Virus record (IMG/VR): IMGVR_UViG_3300025875_000001
Location: 32,001-96,000 of that record
Length of the DNA stretch: 64,000 nt
Strand: one strand, 5' to 3'
DNA from: a virus
Shown in pieces: positions 29,141-41,657 of the stretch (the stretch's first letter is position 1; the number at the start of each line of letters is the position of its first letter). A model generated the notes under the pieces. It was not told the origin of the DNA. It saw nothing but the letters and a program-made list of their open reading frames with translations, and did no database searches. Both the position numbers and the translations under genes were made by a program.

Positions 29141-29454
29141 TTCATGATGAGTTAGTGGAGAGGGCAGTTTAACGACATGCCCTAGGTCGTCTTGCTCAGT
29201 ACAGATTAGCGATAGCGTCTCCTATCCAGAATAGCATTGCGAATGCGATTGGAAGAAAGAACAACCAAGCTAGTGCCTTGACCAGTGTAAATAGGTGAGC
29301 GTTCCTCACTTCACCCGGCCCTTCCCTGCTGGATGCCTGTCCATGCATGCCTGCCTAGCCCTCTCAGCCGTCGTGTGCTGGCCTCCCATGGTGTGTCCGG
29401 TAGTGGGTGCCGGGATGATGAGTGTGAGCGCTCCTAGGGGCGTATGGCGGGTAG

Positions 29455-29682
29455 TCACAGCAGACCAAGCCATTCTGCCTCATACTCATCGATTGCTTCG
29501 CGCATGCCTTCCTCGGTGCGCGCGATGGTGGGCACGTCCGTGGCGTAGTCCCACACGTTAATGCAATCGAACGTTCGCCCCGTGCATTCGACGTCCTCCT
29601 GCCCGTGGATATCGATGTATGCGCCACCGTGCCACACATAGGTGGCGTATTCGGTTGTGATGTAGAGAGTTTCCATTGTCAT
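29455..29682 (-). CDS. Hypothetical early protein
   Basis: AGGAG SD before ATG 29682. Confidence 0.65.
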   Translation of the reverse strand: MTMETLYITTEYATYVWHGGAYIDIHGQEDVECTGRTFDCINVWDYATDVPTIARTEEGMREAIDEYEAEWLGLL

Positions 29683-29710
29683 ACTCCTATAGCTAGTGGG
29701 GGGGGGTGGG

Positions 29711-29860
29711 TTAGTGAACGGTGACGCGCGAACCGTGACACTCACAGTGACAACCCACTAGGCGTGTCTGCCACCGAACACCATTCCATGACGTTATGGC
29801 GGTCACAGCGTCACATTCATTGTGCCTGCCCTCTTTGCACGCTTTGACATCCATTGTCAT
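29711..29860 (-). CDS. Small Cys/His-rich protein (49 aa)
   Basis: Read manually: CKEGRHNEC...CHCECH; AAGGA SD. Confidence 0.65.
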   Translation of the reverse strand: MTMDVKACKEGRHNECDAVTAITSWNGVRWQTRLVGCHCECHGSRVTVH

Positions 29861-29896
29861 ATCCTTTGTTTGTATATATCGGTATGGGTGGGTTAG

Positions 29897-30358
29897 TTAG
29901 TCCAGGTCGTCGCTGTCACAGTCGCAGACATCGGCGGCACAGACAGGGAATGCCCTACTGCCGATATTGTAATCAGCGGTGCGCGGGTACTTAGTGAGAA
30001 AGTTTGCCTCTCCCTCATAGCGTGCAAATGCGGAAGTGATGACAGCGTGGGGATAGGTACGCATAACCTCCCGCATCACCCGGCCGTATGCGTGCCAGCA
30101 TGCCCACGGTCCCCGCCGACCTGATGCACTACGTCGGGCGCCCTCACCCTTGCTGCTCACAGCAATGATCCGACCCCGGAATCCGTATCCGTTAGCGGTA
30201 CTCACGTAGCCGCTACCGTCCTGGTGCACGGTCCGAGTGATCTTGCCAATTGGTCCGGCGTCCGGGTGCACGATCACATTGCCGCCGTATTCTGCGCTCA
30301 CCTTCTCAACAATTGCCCGGACAGTGGAGAACTCGACACCCTTGCCACGAACGTACAT
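29897..30358 (-). CDS. Hypothetical early protein
   Basis: 153 aa, AGGAGG SD. Confidence 0.75.
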   Translation of the reverse strand: MYVRGKGVEFSTVRAIVEKVSAEYGGNVIVHPDAGPIGKITRTVHQDGSGYVSTANGYGFRGRIIAVSSKGEGARRSASGRRGPWACWHAYGRVMREVMRTYPHAVITSAFARYEGEANFLTKYPRTADYNIGSRAFPVCAADVCDCDSDDLD

Positions 30359-30397
30359 TTAAAGCCTCCTGCTAGTGTATGTATTGGATATGTCAGT

Positions 30398-30461
30398 TGA
30401 CAATCCATGACTTCCCCTAACAAAGCCTAGCGGCCACATTAGGGGAAATCAAAGCGTGTCA
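30398..30461 (-). other. Conserved post-stop hairpin, copy A (putative RNA processing site)
   Basis: TGACA-CGCTT-TGATTTCCCCTAA...TTAGGGGAAGTCA-TGGAT-TGTCA. Confidence 0.6.
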
Positions 30462-30782
30462 AACACTCATACGCCGAATGCGGGTTGCGGTCTTTCGGTA
30501 TGCCGCCCGCGCCTCTCTCAGCGTGTCGAACGTCTGCCAGTCTGCCCGTGTTCGCCCGCCATCTTCCGTTTCTACCCATCGGGGATAACGTCCGCTGTCA
30601 TCGAAGGTCTCCCCCGGAATGCGGGTGTGAACGTGCCAGCATCCATCATGCCGCATCATAACGGCAGGACTGTCACCGCCGTAATAATCGCTCGATCCGT
30701 CGGCGGGCGTTGACTCCAGATATCCGCATCCGAGCGCATATGCTGACAGTTCGCCCGTCTTAATCGTCATGTCAGTGTTCAT
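30459..30782 (-). CDS. Hypothetical early protein
   Basis: AGGAGG SD before ATG 30782. Confidence 0.7.
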   Translation of the reverse strand: MNTDMTIKTGELSAYALGCGYLESTPADGSSDYYGGDSPAVMMRHDGCWHVHTRIPGETFDDSGRYPRWVETEDGGRTRADWQTFDTLREARAAYRKTATRIRRMSV

Positions 30783-30818
30783 GTCTTTCCTCCTGCTATT
30801 TGTGTCGGATATGTCGTC

Positions 30819-30872
30819 TGACATTCCATGAAAGCTAGCTAGGTTTAATTAGCTAGCTTTCAAAGCGTGTCA
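30819..30872 (-). other. Conserved post-stop hairpin, copy B
   Basis: TGACA-CGCTT-TGAAAGCTAGCTA...TAGCTAGCTTTCA-TGGAA-TGTCA. Confidence 0.6.
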
Positions 30873-31094
30873 GTCGCAGAGGACGTCGGGGTGACAAGAC
30901 GTGTGGTCTCCGGAGTCGTGACGCTCCAAAATGGCAGCGCCATAGGGGTCTCCGATATCGCCGTGGCCCTGGCAGTAATCGATTATCTGCCCACATGCCG
31001 GGCAGGATGAAACGAATTCGATTTCGTCGCCGTCCCACGTAAGGTCATCGGCAGGCCAGTCGGCAGAAACCGAATAGTCATCAAAGTAGGTCAC
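30870..31094 (-). CDS. Small acidic Cys/His protein
   Basis: CPACGQIIDYCQGH...HTSCH. Confidence 0.65.
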   Translation of the reverse strand: MTYFDDYSVSADWPADDLTWDGDEIEFVSSCPACGQIIDYCQGHGDIGDPYGAAILERHDSGDHTSCHPDVLCD

Positions 31095-31249
31095 AGTGTT
31101 TCTCCATCCGTGAAAGTGATCGGGTACTCGACCCAGCCGTTGTGGTCGAACGTCTTGTGGGAGAAGTGCAGGGCGATGGCGTAGGAAATGACCATTAGCG
31201 CCAGGGCGACGGAGACGATGAGCGTCCAGTCAATCTTTCGGCCCACCAT
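31091..31249 (-). CDS. Small membrane protein
   Basis: One TM segment; likely start ATG 31249 within ORF 31091-31381. Confidence 0.55.
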   Translation of the reverse strand: MVGRKIDWTLIVSVALALMVISYAIALHFSHKTFDHNGWVEYPITFTDGETL

Positions 31250-31394
31250 CTCTCCCGTGCCAAACGTTGCGCGCTTGCTGCGATCTACTGTCGTTGCTGT
31301 ACATCGGTTGACTCCTATTGCTAGTTGGATTGCACGGTCACCATGGCACATAGGGCAATAATTGTTAATCCTATGTGCCATGGAAACTAGGCAG

Positions 31395-31694
31395 TCACCA
31401 CCAGGTGCGGATCAAATTGTCGATGGTCGGATCGAGGTTGAGTGTGTAATCGGACACCACCTCATCGGGGGCATTGCCGAGCACGAAGAACACCCAGCCC
31501 GCACCATTCCCGCCGGGCAGCGTCACATGTAGGTGCGCCATATCCACGGCCATGATTGCTTCGACCGCTGCCGTTTCCGTGGAAACCTTGGTTTCCTCCT
31601 CACCATCGTTGACGGAGTAGAGCACGTGCCCGGACTTGCGCAGTGCCCGGATGACCTGCCGGATGCCAGCAGAGTCGGTAGTGGGTGCAGTCAT
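31395..31694 (-). CDS. Hypothetical early protein
   Basis: AGGAG SD before ATG 31694; FVLGN.PDEVVSDY motif. Confidence 0.7.
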   Translation of the reverse strand: MTAPTTDSAGIRQVIRALRKSGHVLYSVNDGEEETKVSTETAAVEAIMAVDMAHLHVTLPGGNGAGWVFFVLGNAPDEVVSDYTLNLDPTIDNLIRTWW

Positions 31695-31704
31695 TGTCTT
31701 TCTC

Positions 31705-31803
31705 CTATCGGTTAGCGGTCGGTCGGTTGGCGATGTCTGCTGCGATGCGCTGTGAGGGGCACCCACACGTTGCCCGGTGATGCTTGGGACAGTTGACGGG
31801 CAT
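31705..31803 (-). CDS. Small peptide (32 aa)
   Basis: Read manually: MPVNCPKHHRATCGCP...; AAAGG SD. Confidence 0.4.
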   Translation of the reverse strand: MPVNCPKHHRATCGCPSQRIAADIANRPTANR

Positions 31804-31825
31804 TGTCTTTACCTTTCGTCGTGTC

Positions 31826-31877
31826 TAACTTTCCATGAAAGCCACTAACGTTAATTAGTGACAATCAAAGCTAGTCA
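31826..31877 (-). other. Conserved post-stop hairpin, copy C
   Basis: TGACT-AGCTT-TGA..GTCACTAA...TTAGTGGC..TCA-TGGAA-AGTTA with G-U pairs. Confidence 0.55.
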
Positions 31878-32162
31878 GAATAGACCATCATTCCATTCCG
31901 ACTCTGTGAGCCGCAGCCAGCGGGACGATTCGCCGTTGTTGAGATTGGTCAATCTGACCCATACCCACCCGGCGTCGAAAGCTTTATCCACCTCCACCAA
32001 CGTGCCTGTCTTGCCCCAGATCGTCACGACGCATCCGATTGCCATTGCTTCACCGGGGGTGAGTGTGTTTGCTTCCACGTAAGCGTTGACCAGTGCGACC
32101 CTTTCATCTGGTCCCATTGCGGGAGAGAATCCGGGGAGCGTGCGAATGTCAGGAACGATCAT
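31875..32162 (-). CDS. Hypothetical early protein
   Basis: AGGAG SD. Confidence 0.7.
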   Translation of the reverse strand: MIVPDIRTLPGFSPAMGPDERVALVNAYVEANTLTPGEAMAIGCVVTIWGKTGTLVEVDKAFDAGWVWVRLTNLNNGESSRWLRLTESEWNDGLF

Positions 32163-32194
32163 TGTCTCTCTCCTATTGCTAGTAGTTGTTTGCG

Positions 32195-32244
32195 TGGCAC
32201 TAGCGGGGATCGAACCCGCACCGTGGACCTTTCCACCTAGTGCC
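32195..32244 (-). ncRNA. 50-nt tRNA-like element (acceptor stem, one hairpin, T-arm)
   Basis: GGCACTA/TAGTGCC 7-bp stem, GTGGA-AAGG-TCCAC hairpin, GCGGG-TTCGATC-CCCGC T-arm, discriminator A. Confidence 0.65.
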
Positions 32245-32459
32245 TACTTGCCCGAGTGAGCCTTAGCGCTTGTCCGCTCACAGTGTCTGACTTTGCACTC
32301 CCGTAGGTGCCTGCACTGATCTTCGCTAGGAGGCTAGCTACTCACTCGGTCTTGCCACGCTGTGTAGTTGTGAAGGTTCGGTGTTGCTGTGCTGGGATCA
32401 GTAAAGCGTAAATCTCGGCGTGTCGCTAGGTTTCCCATATGGAGTATCTGCCAAATCCA

Positions 32460-32864: not shown

Positions 32865-33235
32865 TAAATCTGGCGGGGCGGTGTTAGTTAAGTATAATTA
32901 ATAGAGAAGTCCCATATCCGACTTACAAATTCTGAATTTACAGTGATAGCGCGGGGGTCTTACATTAATTATTAGATTCATTATTTAGTATTTCTACCAT
33001 AAGATATCTCTTAACTAATATGATTATAGGGTGTTTATAGTTATTGTGCAAAATATGGTAGGAATTTGACTTTTTATGGGGTGTTTTGTATGATATTTAT
33101 GTGTTTTTGTAGTAAATTTGCTATATTTTGTCTTTATTTTGCTTATTCCAATACACATAAAAATTGCTAATATATCAAATTTCCCCAGCCGCTGTTTTAA
33201 TTTAAAGACATTCACCCAAAACTCTCAATACAACC

Positions 33236-41320: not shown

Positions 41321-41392
41321 GCGACGCAGTGGGATTCGAACCCACATTCCGATCCATAAGCGGTCGGTCTTACCTATTAGATGATTGCGCCG
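41321..41392 (-). tRNA. Atypical tRNA; anticodon ambiguous (TTA by stem geometry, TAT by U33/R37 rule)
   Basis: CGGCGCA/TGCGTCG acceptor, D-loop TAATAGGTAA, GTGGG-TTCGAAT-CCCAC T-arm, imperfect anticodon stem CCGACC/GATCGG. Confidence 0.55.
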
Positions 41393-41432
41393 ACCAGCAC
41401 CCGACTAATGGCCTATCAGTCGTCACTGGCCC

Positions 41433-41471
41433 GGTGCCCCCGACAGGAGTCGAACCTGTCCGCTCAGGGGC
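41433..41471 (-). ncRNA. tRNA minihelix (acceptor stem plus T-arm only)
   Basis: GCCCCTG-AGCGG-ACAGG-TTCGACT-CCTGT-CGGGGGC-A-CC. Confidence 0.6.
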
Positions 41472-41588
41472 AATAGGCGTTAACCGGTATACCTATTGTC
41501 ACCCTTTGCGTTCCCAATAAATCCATCAGCAGCAGTTGTGATCATCAACTACCTAGGATCATCAGAGGCTTGGATCATTTAGTTATGC

Positions 41589-41657
41589 GCGGGTCGCTAG
41601 GAATCGAACCTAGATACATCGTGGCTTGATTAAGCTTTACCATTAAGCTACGACCCT
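41589..41657 (-). tRNA. Degenerate tRNA (possible Gly-GCC-like pseudo-tRNA)
   Basis: Good D-arm GCTT-AATGGTA-AAGC and T-arm CTAGG-TTCGATT-CCTAG; anticodon stem only 3 bp around AAGCCAC. Confidence 0.45.

Follow-up and report, generated by a model that had tools for sequence, protein, structure and literature searches.

A tRNA-like element without an anticodon arm ahead of a gene cassette in an uncultured Streptomyces-phage relative, and its possible role as an RNA-processing signal

What is a tRNA-like fold that cannot present an anticodon doing ahead of a small gene in a phage genome? The question is raised by a 50-nt element in IMG/VR virus record IMGVR_UViG_3300025875_000001, a sequence of 134,813 bp with terminal repeats. 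Bases 32001-96000 of this record make up the window, that is, the whole 64,000-nt stretch of DNA analysed here, and positions given below are those of the window unless the genome is named. The portal protein is ~55% identical to that of cluster BE Streptomyces phages (family Stanwilliamsviridae), and the genome is that of an uncultured relative of these phages. Cluster BE phages are described in PMC5764925 as having genomes of 130 kb with terminal repeats of ~11 kb, at least 40 tRNAs, and a tmRNA. The RNA genes of the phage studied here comprise about 33-35 tRNAs, one tmRNA, and one GOLLD RNA.

The element occupies 32195..32244 on the minus strand, as delimited by its sequence, its fold, an alignment to the Rfam tRNA model, and the expectation from shuffled sequence. 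Read 5' to 3', it opens with the acceptor strand GGCACTA (32238..32244), in which seven of seven bases form Watson-Crick pairs with the 3' acceptor strand TAGTGCC (32196-32202). A single G (32237) follows, and then a hairpin with a 5-bp stem and an AAGG tetraloop (32223..32236) that is evident from the fold. The linker GGT (32220-32222) leads into the T-arm (32203..32219), in which a 5-bp stem, GCGGG/CCCGC, carries the loop TTCGATC; both the sequence and the Rfam alignment support this assignment. The 3' acceptor strand comes next, and the discriminator A (32195) closes the element. The space between the acceptor stem and the T-stem is 18 nt and holds the single 5-bp hairpin with its 4-nt loop. 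An anticodon arm with a 7-nt anticodon-presenting loop is absent. What is present is the part of a canonical tRNA formed by the stack of a 7-bp acceptor stem and a 5-bp T-stem, the T-loop TTCRANY, and the discriminator base. The canonical T-loop is accompanied by G53-C61, G1-C72, and A73, and the T-arm matches GGTTCRANYCC, the motif used in t-element searches.

The fold is unusually regular. All 17 base pairs of the element are Watson-Crick pairs, and there are no wobble pairs. The MFE and centroid structures computed with ViennaRNA are both exactly the tRNA-mimic structure, at -24.9 kcal/mol. The fold has a z-score of -3.78, and none of 200 shuffles is equally stable. The structure persists when the element is folded with 190 nt of context, and a larger structured RNA that takes in the upstream leader is insignificant (z = -1.5). 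The original prediction of a 7-bp acceptor stem, a canonical T-arm, a discriminator A, and one 5-bp hairpin with a 4-nt loop is thus confirmed by the agreement of the sequence with the MFE fold. The Rfam tRNA model (RF00005) spans the element from end to end (model positions 1-71), with the D and anticodon regions collapsed. At 24.7 bits, the match does not reach the gathering score of 29 (its E-value is 0.013 locally and 4.6e-4 genome-wide), and ARAGORN does not call the element, even at a lowered threshold. To gauge chance, the whole 134.8-kb genome was shuffled 200 times with its dinucleotides preserved. A T-arm combined with an acceptor stem of 7 bp within 30 nt arose on average 0.05 times per shuffled genome, and 8 of the 200 shuffles contained any such arrangement. 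The 50-nt tRNA-like fold is real and far from chance. By class, the element is a t-element-like tRNA mimic and does not have the status of a tRNA.

The bases that flank the element can be compared with those of the tRNA genes of the phage. The equivalent of position 74 (32194) is C in the element, as it is in 33 of 33 tRNA genes. At position -1, the element has A. A T is found at this position in 28 of the 33 true tRNA genes, and T at -1 is the preference of RNase P.

The single hairpin allows two readings, and both stand. It is either a tightened remnant of a D-arm or a variable-arm-like hairpin. In a plain alignment, it locally resembles the D-arm of tRNA-Arg(CCU) of the phage. If the hairpin is read as a D-arm, a wobble pair has been replaced by G-C, one G-C pair has been gained, and the loop has been shortened from 8 to 4 nt, every one of which is a stabilizing change. 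Class II tRNAs of the phage and its relatives have variable arms of 5 bp with a tetraloop, and the hairpin resembles these as well. Under both readings, the anticodon arm is missing. The element had been described from the outset as lacking both the D-arm and any anticodon loop; the loss of the anticodon arm is upheld, but that of the D-arm is insecure, as the hairpin may be a D-arm that has been remodelled.

The likeness to tRNA-Arg(CCU) extends beyond the hairpin. A covariance model was built from the 50-nt element itself and run on its own genome. The tRNA-Arg(CCU) gene, which lies at genome positions 96508-96580, ~500 bases past the right-hand end of the window, scored 28.7 bits (E ~6e-5), whereas the other tRNAs of the genome reached at most 17.1 bits. 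When the first 17 bases of the element are aligned with the acceptor strand and D-arm of this tRNA, 14 positions agree, with one gap, and the last 29 bases give 23 matches. The 3' trailers of the two also begin with the same four bases. Over the minihelix, the element and tRNA-Arg(CCU) are identical at 25 of 32 positions (z about 2.7), measured against a baseline of 96 tRNAs of the phage and its relatives (mean 17.4, sd 2.8). The runner-up is a class II Glu-type tRNA, with 24 of 32 minihelix positions. The stems of the element and tRNA-Arg(CCU) differ at pairs 2-71, 4-69, and 51-63, and both sides of the pair have changed each time.

A second armless element is found in the window. It is a 39-nt acceptor/T-arm minihelix that resembles Arg tRNAs and lies on the minus strand at 41433..41471. 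When the element model was run with filters off over 28-46 kb, the sole other full-length match was 41435-41471, with 18.7 bits. The nearest tRNAs of the 39-nt minihelix are Arg tRNAs of the phage and of BE phages (24-27 of 32 positions). Three other defective tRNA-like sequences are located at 41321-41657.

The 12 acceptor and T-stem pairs were compared among tRNA-Arg(CCU) and the two armless elements. Pairing holds in all 36 cells of this comparison, with no pair broken; five of the 12 pairs have changed on both sides, and one has changed on one side (U-A to U-G), but tRNA-like sequences that are chosen by their fold pair by construction, and this count does not prove that the armless form is under selection. 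The three-way comparison places the changes at 2-71, 4-69, and 51-63 on the lineage of the 50-nt element. These compensated changes may predate the loss of the arm and come from an ancestor that was a working tRNA. Judged from these alignments, the element probably descends from a tRNA gene of the phage lineage, with tRNA-Arg(CCU) as the nearest relative, and has lost the anticodon arm. The original prediction had also considered that the homologs might be ordinary full tRNAs, with a recent deletion in this genome only. In fact, the nearest relative has the full tRNA structure, yet with 25/32 identical positions it is a diverged paralog and not a near-identical parent.

The genomic position of the element bears on its possible role. 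Two minus-strand ORFs flank the 1.07 kb of non-coding DNA that contains it. On the same strand, 32 nt downstream, a 95-aa ORF (31875..32162, minus strand) begins with an ATG and has a strong ribosome-binding site. This ORF is the first gene of a GC-rich cassette. The GC-rich block covers 29200-32400 (3.2 kb, 56% G+C) and is flanked by DNA of about 30-42% G+C, and the element is found ~150-200 bp inside the right-hand edge of the block. The 32-nt spacer between the element and the ORF (32163..32194, minus strand) is a candidate 5' UTR after 3' processing. It holds the Shine-Dalgarno sequence and a 14-nt translation-start motif (32170-32183, minus strand), which is common to two other cassette genes. 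A consensus scan found neither a sigma-70-like promoter nor a terminator between the element and the 95-aa ORF, and no minus-strand promoter from 32245 to ~32960. In the same type of scan, promoter-like sites are seen at 32968-33052, and therefore a leader of several hundred bases is possible.

The other junctions of the minus-strand cassette (32.2-29.6 kb) are also structured, and a structured RNA element precedes nearly every gene. The 95-aa ORF is followed, at its stop codon, by a hairpin (31826..31877, minus strand) that is a member of a three-copy family, with the second and third copies at 30815-30876 and 30397-30462. All three of these related hairpins start at stop codons and have an internal loop in common. 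A 14-bp hairpin at 31328-31396 also begins at a stop codon, and a more complex fold is present upstream of 29697. The 14-nt translation-start motif occurs before three cassette genes. The structure just upstream of the motif is the tRNA-like element at the first gene; the other two genes have a hairpin or a complex fold in its place. The tRNA-like element fills the "punctuation" slot that is held by conserved hairpins before the later genes of the cassette.

How could a fold of this kind act at such a junction? Bacterial RNase P measures the coaxial acceptor/T helix and the T-loop, and the same unit is accepted by RNase Z and the CCA-adding enzyme. Bacterial RNase P also accepts acceptor/T-arm minihelices. 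The coaxial 12-bp acceptor/T-arm helix with its T-loop, the part that tRNA-maturation enzymes recognize, appears to be what was retained after the loss of the arm. On the basis of the anatomy of the element and these known substrate rules, we tentatively propose, with slightly less than even confidence, that the element, derived from a tRNA, acts in cis as a t-element-like processing signal, which host RNase P and a 3' tRNA-processing nuclease would recognize. A long leader transcript would carry the element. Host RNase P would cut at its 5' end, between 32245 and 32244, a site assigned because of the substrate rules of RNase P. RNase Z or the host 3' tRNA-trimming activity would act at or just past the discriminator, at ~32195/32194. 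The long leader would thereby be shed, and the 95-aa ORF and the genes that follow would keep a short, unstructured 5' UTR of 32 nt with the ribosome-binding site. A small RNA of ~50 nt would be set free, and CCA addition may follow. We infer transcription through the element, both cuts, and the benefit to expression.

Precedents for such a use of tRNA-processing enzymes are available. RNase P is not confined to tRNAs, and its substrates include operon mRNAs as well as the phage RNAs M3 and C4 (PMC11143913). In Arabidopsis mitochondria, the 5' leader of cox1 contains a t-element with a perfect T-arm, and RNase Z cleavage at its end creates the mature 5' end of the mRNA (PMC1920247). The released cox1 leader fragments bear non-encoded C and CA (PMC1920247). 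For the phage element, the placement on the sense strand, 32 nt before an ATG and with no promoter or terminator in between, counts in favour of a processing signal, as do the punctuation slot, the compensated tRNA-Arg ancestry, the second armless element, and the stabilized hairpin. The lack of a between-genome homolog in the collections searched, the A at -1, the moderate strength of the link to tRNA-Arg, and the failure to locate a promoter count against it. Among the functions that the original prediction had offered, an RNase P/RNase Z signal is the best supported, through anatomy and substrate rules, at a level of confidence that falls a little short of one half. The claim that intact stems reflect selection and not decay finds indirect support: the compensated stem pairs, the second armless derivative, and the junction slot suggest it.

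Relatives of the element in other genomes were sought in several ways, and no homolog was found in any collection searched. With megablast and blastn, the region and 44 kb of the window have no nucleotide relatives among 50,697 phage records, and the 61-nt region alone gives generic T-arm matches only (E >= 0.4) in these records. The mini form was not found by exact or degenerate patterns in 2.9 million viral contigs. A pattern that combined the hairpin with the T-loop returned two chance matches in coding DNA and one fragment of a class II tRNA from the viral contigs. Full-length tRNAs with the same acceptor stem do occur in species genomes and viral contigs; they are Cys and Met tRNAs and a few others, from Mollicutes, CPR bacteria, and unrelated phages. 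No actinobacterial tRNA with this acceptor stem occurs among 185,579 species genomes, and no near-identical full-length parent tRNA occurs in these species genomes, the 2.9 million viral contigs, or the 50,697 phage records. An aberrant tRNA-like sequence on an unrelated 53-kb viral contig has the acceptor stem, G8, and an ACG end in common with the element, and the rest of the contig is dissimilar. It was rejected as a relative. The resemblance is probably a coincidence, because the pattern search itself selected for the acceptor stem.

The neighbouring genes were used for the same purpose. The 95-aa ORF has no relative except itself in 5.8 billion proteins. For the next gene, a 99-aa ORF, a protein search gave relatives at 53-71% identity. 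Twenty metagenomic loci with relatives of the 99-aa ORF (33-66% identical to the query) were compared with the cassette. The 20 loci have a G+C content of 48-71%, and the contigs that carry relatives of the 99-aa ORF are mostly > 60% G+C (range 52-71%). None of the 20 loci is syntenic with the rest of the cassette. The Rfam tRNA model detected nothing at E <= 1 on the 11 closest of these loci, and the covariance model of the element gave no credible match on any of the 20. In the BE phage Mildred21, the Rfam tRNA model found no tRNA-like match among the terminal-repeat genes. The matches of this model in Mildred21 and of the element model in five other BE phages were real tRNAs, tmRNA ends, T-arms, and 3' halves of class II tRNA-Leu only, and the element model scored at most 18.8 bits in the five phages. 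The search for homologs with compensatory changes, which the original prediction had recommended, thus yielded none in other genomes, but paralogs within the genome did provide compensated pair changes.

The main alternative is that the element is an unselected relic, which we regard as somewhat less likely than a processing signal. An Arg-type paralog or an imported tRNA would have suffered an internal deletion and stayed otherwise intact, any cuts made by the host would bring no benefit, and the sequence would be destined to decay. The singleton state of the element, with no orthologs found, fits such a relic. Its place at the edge of the 56% G+C block, along with the high-G+C contigs of the 99-aa relatives, fits a recent import from an unsampled high-GC phage, and the A at -1 departs from working tRNA genes. 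A tRNA followed by a small ORF ~30-40 nt downstream is the usual layout in the phage family and needs no special explanation, and the defective tRNA-like sequences at 41321-41657 could mark a tRNA graveyard. However, the 17 pairs are all Watson-Crick despite seven differences from the nearest tRNA over the 32 minihelix positions, and very large collections contain no near-identical full-length parent. The loss of exactly one arm, with the loop cut to a tetraloop and a base pair added, is unlike random loss, and two independent armless derivatives each have a perfect minihelix.

Action in trans is a more doubtful explanation, and we consider it improbable. As a decoy or sponge, the freed, CCA-tailed 50-nt RNA would occupy a host factor that recognizes tRNAs by their acceptor/T-arm end. 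Candidates are SmpB, the CCA-adding enzyme, and a defence-system toxin or nuclease that modifies the acceptor end. The TLD-only tmRNA of DS6A, for which titration of SmpB has been suggested (PMC4131195), offers a precedent, and two armless Arg-type derivatives are present in one genome. The T-arm and 3' end of the element are weakly similar to the 3' end of BE-phage tmRNA (25 of 29 bases), a likeness that is insignificant (E = 2). Heavy investment in tRNA biology is apparent in Mildred21, which is annotated with a tRNA nucleotidyltransferase, an RNA ligase, a polynucleotide kinase, and a Ro protein. Nevertheless, the genome of the phage studied here has no TROVE/Ro protein and no PolyA_pol-type CCA enzyme as a partner, a promoter belonging to the element was not found by consensus scan, and there is no pointer to any particular target. 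An RNA without an anticodon loop cannot decoy anticodon nucleases, and one without G3:U70 or a tmRNA-type D-loop analogue is not a tmRNA tRNA-like domain. A decoy for defences or synthetases, the second function in the original prediction, finds no support: the anticodon loop is missing, neither G3:U70 nor any other anticodon-independent identity set is present, and the consensus scan gave no promoter of its own. Slightly less probable still is a version that involves both armless RNAs. The 50-nt RNA and the 39-nt RNA (41433-41471) would be freed, CCA-tailed, and non-decoding "top halves" of Arg-tRNA that misdirect a host reader of the acceptor/T-arm; candidates are an acceptor-end defence toxin or nuclease, the CCA-adding or quality-control pathway, and a trans-translation factor. 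We give the least credence to a recombination scar or attachment-type site, which seems very improbable. The 3' part of a tRNA would have been the crossover at the acquisition of the cassette, or the core of an attP-like site. tRNA genes are classic sites of integration and mosaic joints, and the element lies close to the right-hand edge of the GC-rich block, ~150-200 bp on its inner side. However, tyrosine and serine recombinases are missing from the genome (it has neither a Phage_integrase nor a Resolvase domain), and no part of the element is repeated at the other end of the block. Moreover, a crossover remnant would retain neither the 5' acceptor strand that pairs with the 3' one nor a flawless additional hairpin. 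An attP-type tRNA 3' fragment was rejected on the absence of an integrase and of an actinobacterial tRNA with this acceptor stem in the 185,579 species genomes.

If the element is a working processing signal, a large actinophage recycles its own tRNA gene as a pure RNA-processing mark. The principle of "tRNA punctuation", known from mitochondria and from plant t-elements, would then apply to phage operons as well, and host tRNA enzymes alone would turn the long, promoter-poor leaders of cassettes into short, translatable messages. If the RNA acts as a decoy in trans, the phage makes dedicated decoys of tRNA ends rather than mere cutting marks. Elements of this type escape tRNA finders and score below the Rfam threshold, and as a result they are left unannotated in phage genomes. 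A general claim of tRNA punctuation exceeds what one singleton case can carry, and the value of this case is that of an instance with a traceable tRNA-Arg ancestry.

In the literature, we found no description of anticodon-less tRNA-like elements that punctuate phage operons, and the nearest known systems differ from the phage element in several respects. In the MALAT1 (mascRNA) and MEN-beta transcripts, a tRNA mimic within a longer RNA is cut by RNase P and RNase Z, and the freed, non-decoding RNA receives a CCA tail. These are eukaryotic nuclear lncRNAs, in which the mimic is a full cloverleaf with an analogue of the anticodon arm and serves the formation of the 3' end of the upstream RNA. 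In the phage, by contrast, the presumed beneficiary is the downstream mRNA. Minihelices are model substrates of RNase P, RNase Z, and the CCA-adding enzyme, and the recognized unit is the 12-bp coaxial helix with the T-loop and the discriminator. The 39-nt element at 41433-41471 is almost exactly such a substrate. The model substrates are synthetic, whereas the phage element is natural, and its 50-nt form has an extra hairpin at the junction. YrlA and other bacterial Y RNAs were also considered as counterparts and rejected, as the genome has no TROVE domain, the acceptor ends are free, and there is no match to an Rfam Y RNA.

Among phage RNAs, the tRNA genes of BE phages, for example those of Mildred21, have the same order of a tRNA and a small ORF 30-40 nt later, with C at position 74. 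Unlike these genes, the element is non-decoding, falls below the Rfam threshold, is missed by ARAGORN, and is located outside the tRNA region, among tiny genes that are richer in GC. The TLD-only tmRNA of mycobacteriophage DS6A (Hudson, Lau and Williams 2014, PMC4131195) is likewise the tRNA-like top half of an actinophage RNA without the decoding part. The DS6A RNA is the tRNA-like domain of a tmRNA, whereas the element has no G3:U70 or tmRNA-type D-loop analogue and has tRNA-Arg as its nearest relative. Pair 3-70 is C-G in the element and G-U in the tmRNA of the phage itself and in that of Patelgo. The element shows no likeness to the 5' segments of the phage and Patelgo tmRNAs, and the Rfam tmRNA model does not match it.

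The closest parallel is found in the t-elements of plant mitochondria, such as that of cox1 (Forner et al. 2007, PMC1920247). t-elements are organellar and are mostly degenerate cloverleaves of ~70-75 nt, whereas the phage element has 50 nt and one arm is cleanly absent. For t-elements, cleavage and CCA-like additions have been mapped; the phage element is known from its sequence and predicted fold. Like the phage element, t-elements combine a tRNA-like fold, a perfect T-arm, and an acceptor-like stem and do not decode. They are embedded in the leader or trailer of an mRNA on the sense strand, and their ends are expected to set the ends of the mRNA through RNase P and RNase Z. The cox1 t-element, in particular, is positioned in a 5' leader, as the phage element would be.

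The cassette of minus-strand genes that the 95-aa ORF opens lies in a GC-rich block (29200-32400), in which G+C reaches approximately 56% over 3.2 kb and which is flanked on both sides by DNA of 30-40% G+C. The 99-aa gene (31395-31694) is the sole cassette gene with relatives. Since its closest relatives are found on contigs that are mostly above 60% G+C (range 52-71%), we suggest that the block was imported from a high-GC actinophage.

The cassette also carries repeated elements, all on the minus strand. A hairpin family is present in three copies (30397-30462, 30815-30876, and 31826-31877), each of which starts at a stop codon. The internal loop and outer stem are conserved among the copies, while the apical stems are wholly different. 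Together with a separate 14-bp hairpin (31328-31396), these structures resemble operon punctuation or sites of protein binding. Upstream of the start codons, three cassette genes share a 14-nt motif that ends in a Shine-Dalgarno sequence (32170-32183, 31312-31325, and 29684-29697). Judged from this shared motif, two of the listed ORFs would begin later than in their longest form, at approximately 31303 instead of 31381 and at approximately 29673 instead of 29745.

The tRNA genes of the phage follow a uniform convention. All 33 genes called by ARAGORN in the whole genome encode C at position 74, and 28 of the 33 have T at position -1, usually preceded by A; the full CCA is encoded by only three of them. 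This uniformity hints at one processing route common to all of the tRNAs. Three class II-like tRNA genes of 85-87 nt, located outside the window (L008:11856-11940, L008:16023-16108, and L009:7646-7732), have long extra arms. Their anticodons are those of Asn (GUU), Lys (UUU), and Glu (UUC), isotypes for which such arms are unusual. The Glu-type tRNA has the same T-arm and T-loop as the 50-nt element. A GOLLD RNA (Rfam RF02032, 179.8 bits) is encoded on the minus strand within the tRNA region of the genome, also outside the window (L008:9552-9950, genome 105451-105849).

Three more defective tRNA-like sequences are found in a mostly non-coding stretch of the minus strand (41321-41657). They are a 69-nt form (41589-41657, 41 bits) with good D and T arms and a collapsed anticodon region, a 39-nt Arg-tRNA-like minihelix of acceptor and T-arm (41433-41471), and a weak 72-nt form (41321-41392, 22 bits) with UUA as its 'anticodon'.

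An unrelated 53-kb viral contig (L093:5687-5764) contains an aberrant 77-nt tRNA-like sequence that is not called by ARAGORN and is followed by another odd, class II-like tRNA. The acceptor stem, the G at position 8, and the ACG end of the 77-nt sequence are identical to those of the 50-nt element, but the T-stem differs. This likeness is probably a coincidence, as the acceptor stem was what the search required of its hits. A 22.6-kb viral contig (L114:2755-2786 and downstream) contains the 3' part of a class II tRNA, after which the T-arm/acceptor segment of this tRNA is repeated in tandem; the repeats look like reiterated att-type fragments.

The cluster BE Streptomyces phages, relatives of the studied phage, carry an annotated Ro (TROVE) RNA-binding protein, tRNA nucleotidyltransferase, RNA ligase, and polynucleotide kinase (Mildred21, 80769-82421 and neighbours). 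The studied phage has no TROVE or PolyA_pol domains. The acceptor stem of its tmRNA also differs from that of BE phages. The order of tRNA-Arg(CCU), a short spacer, and tmRNA is common to the studied phage and the BE phage Patelgo (63580-63895; genome 96508-96580).
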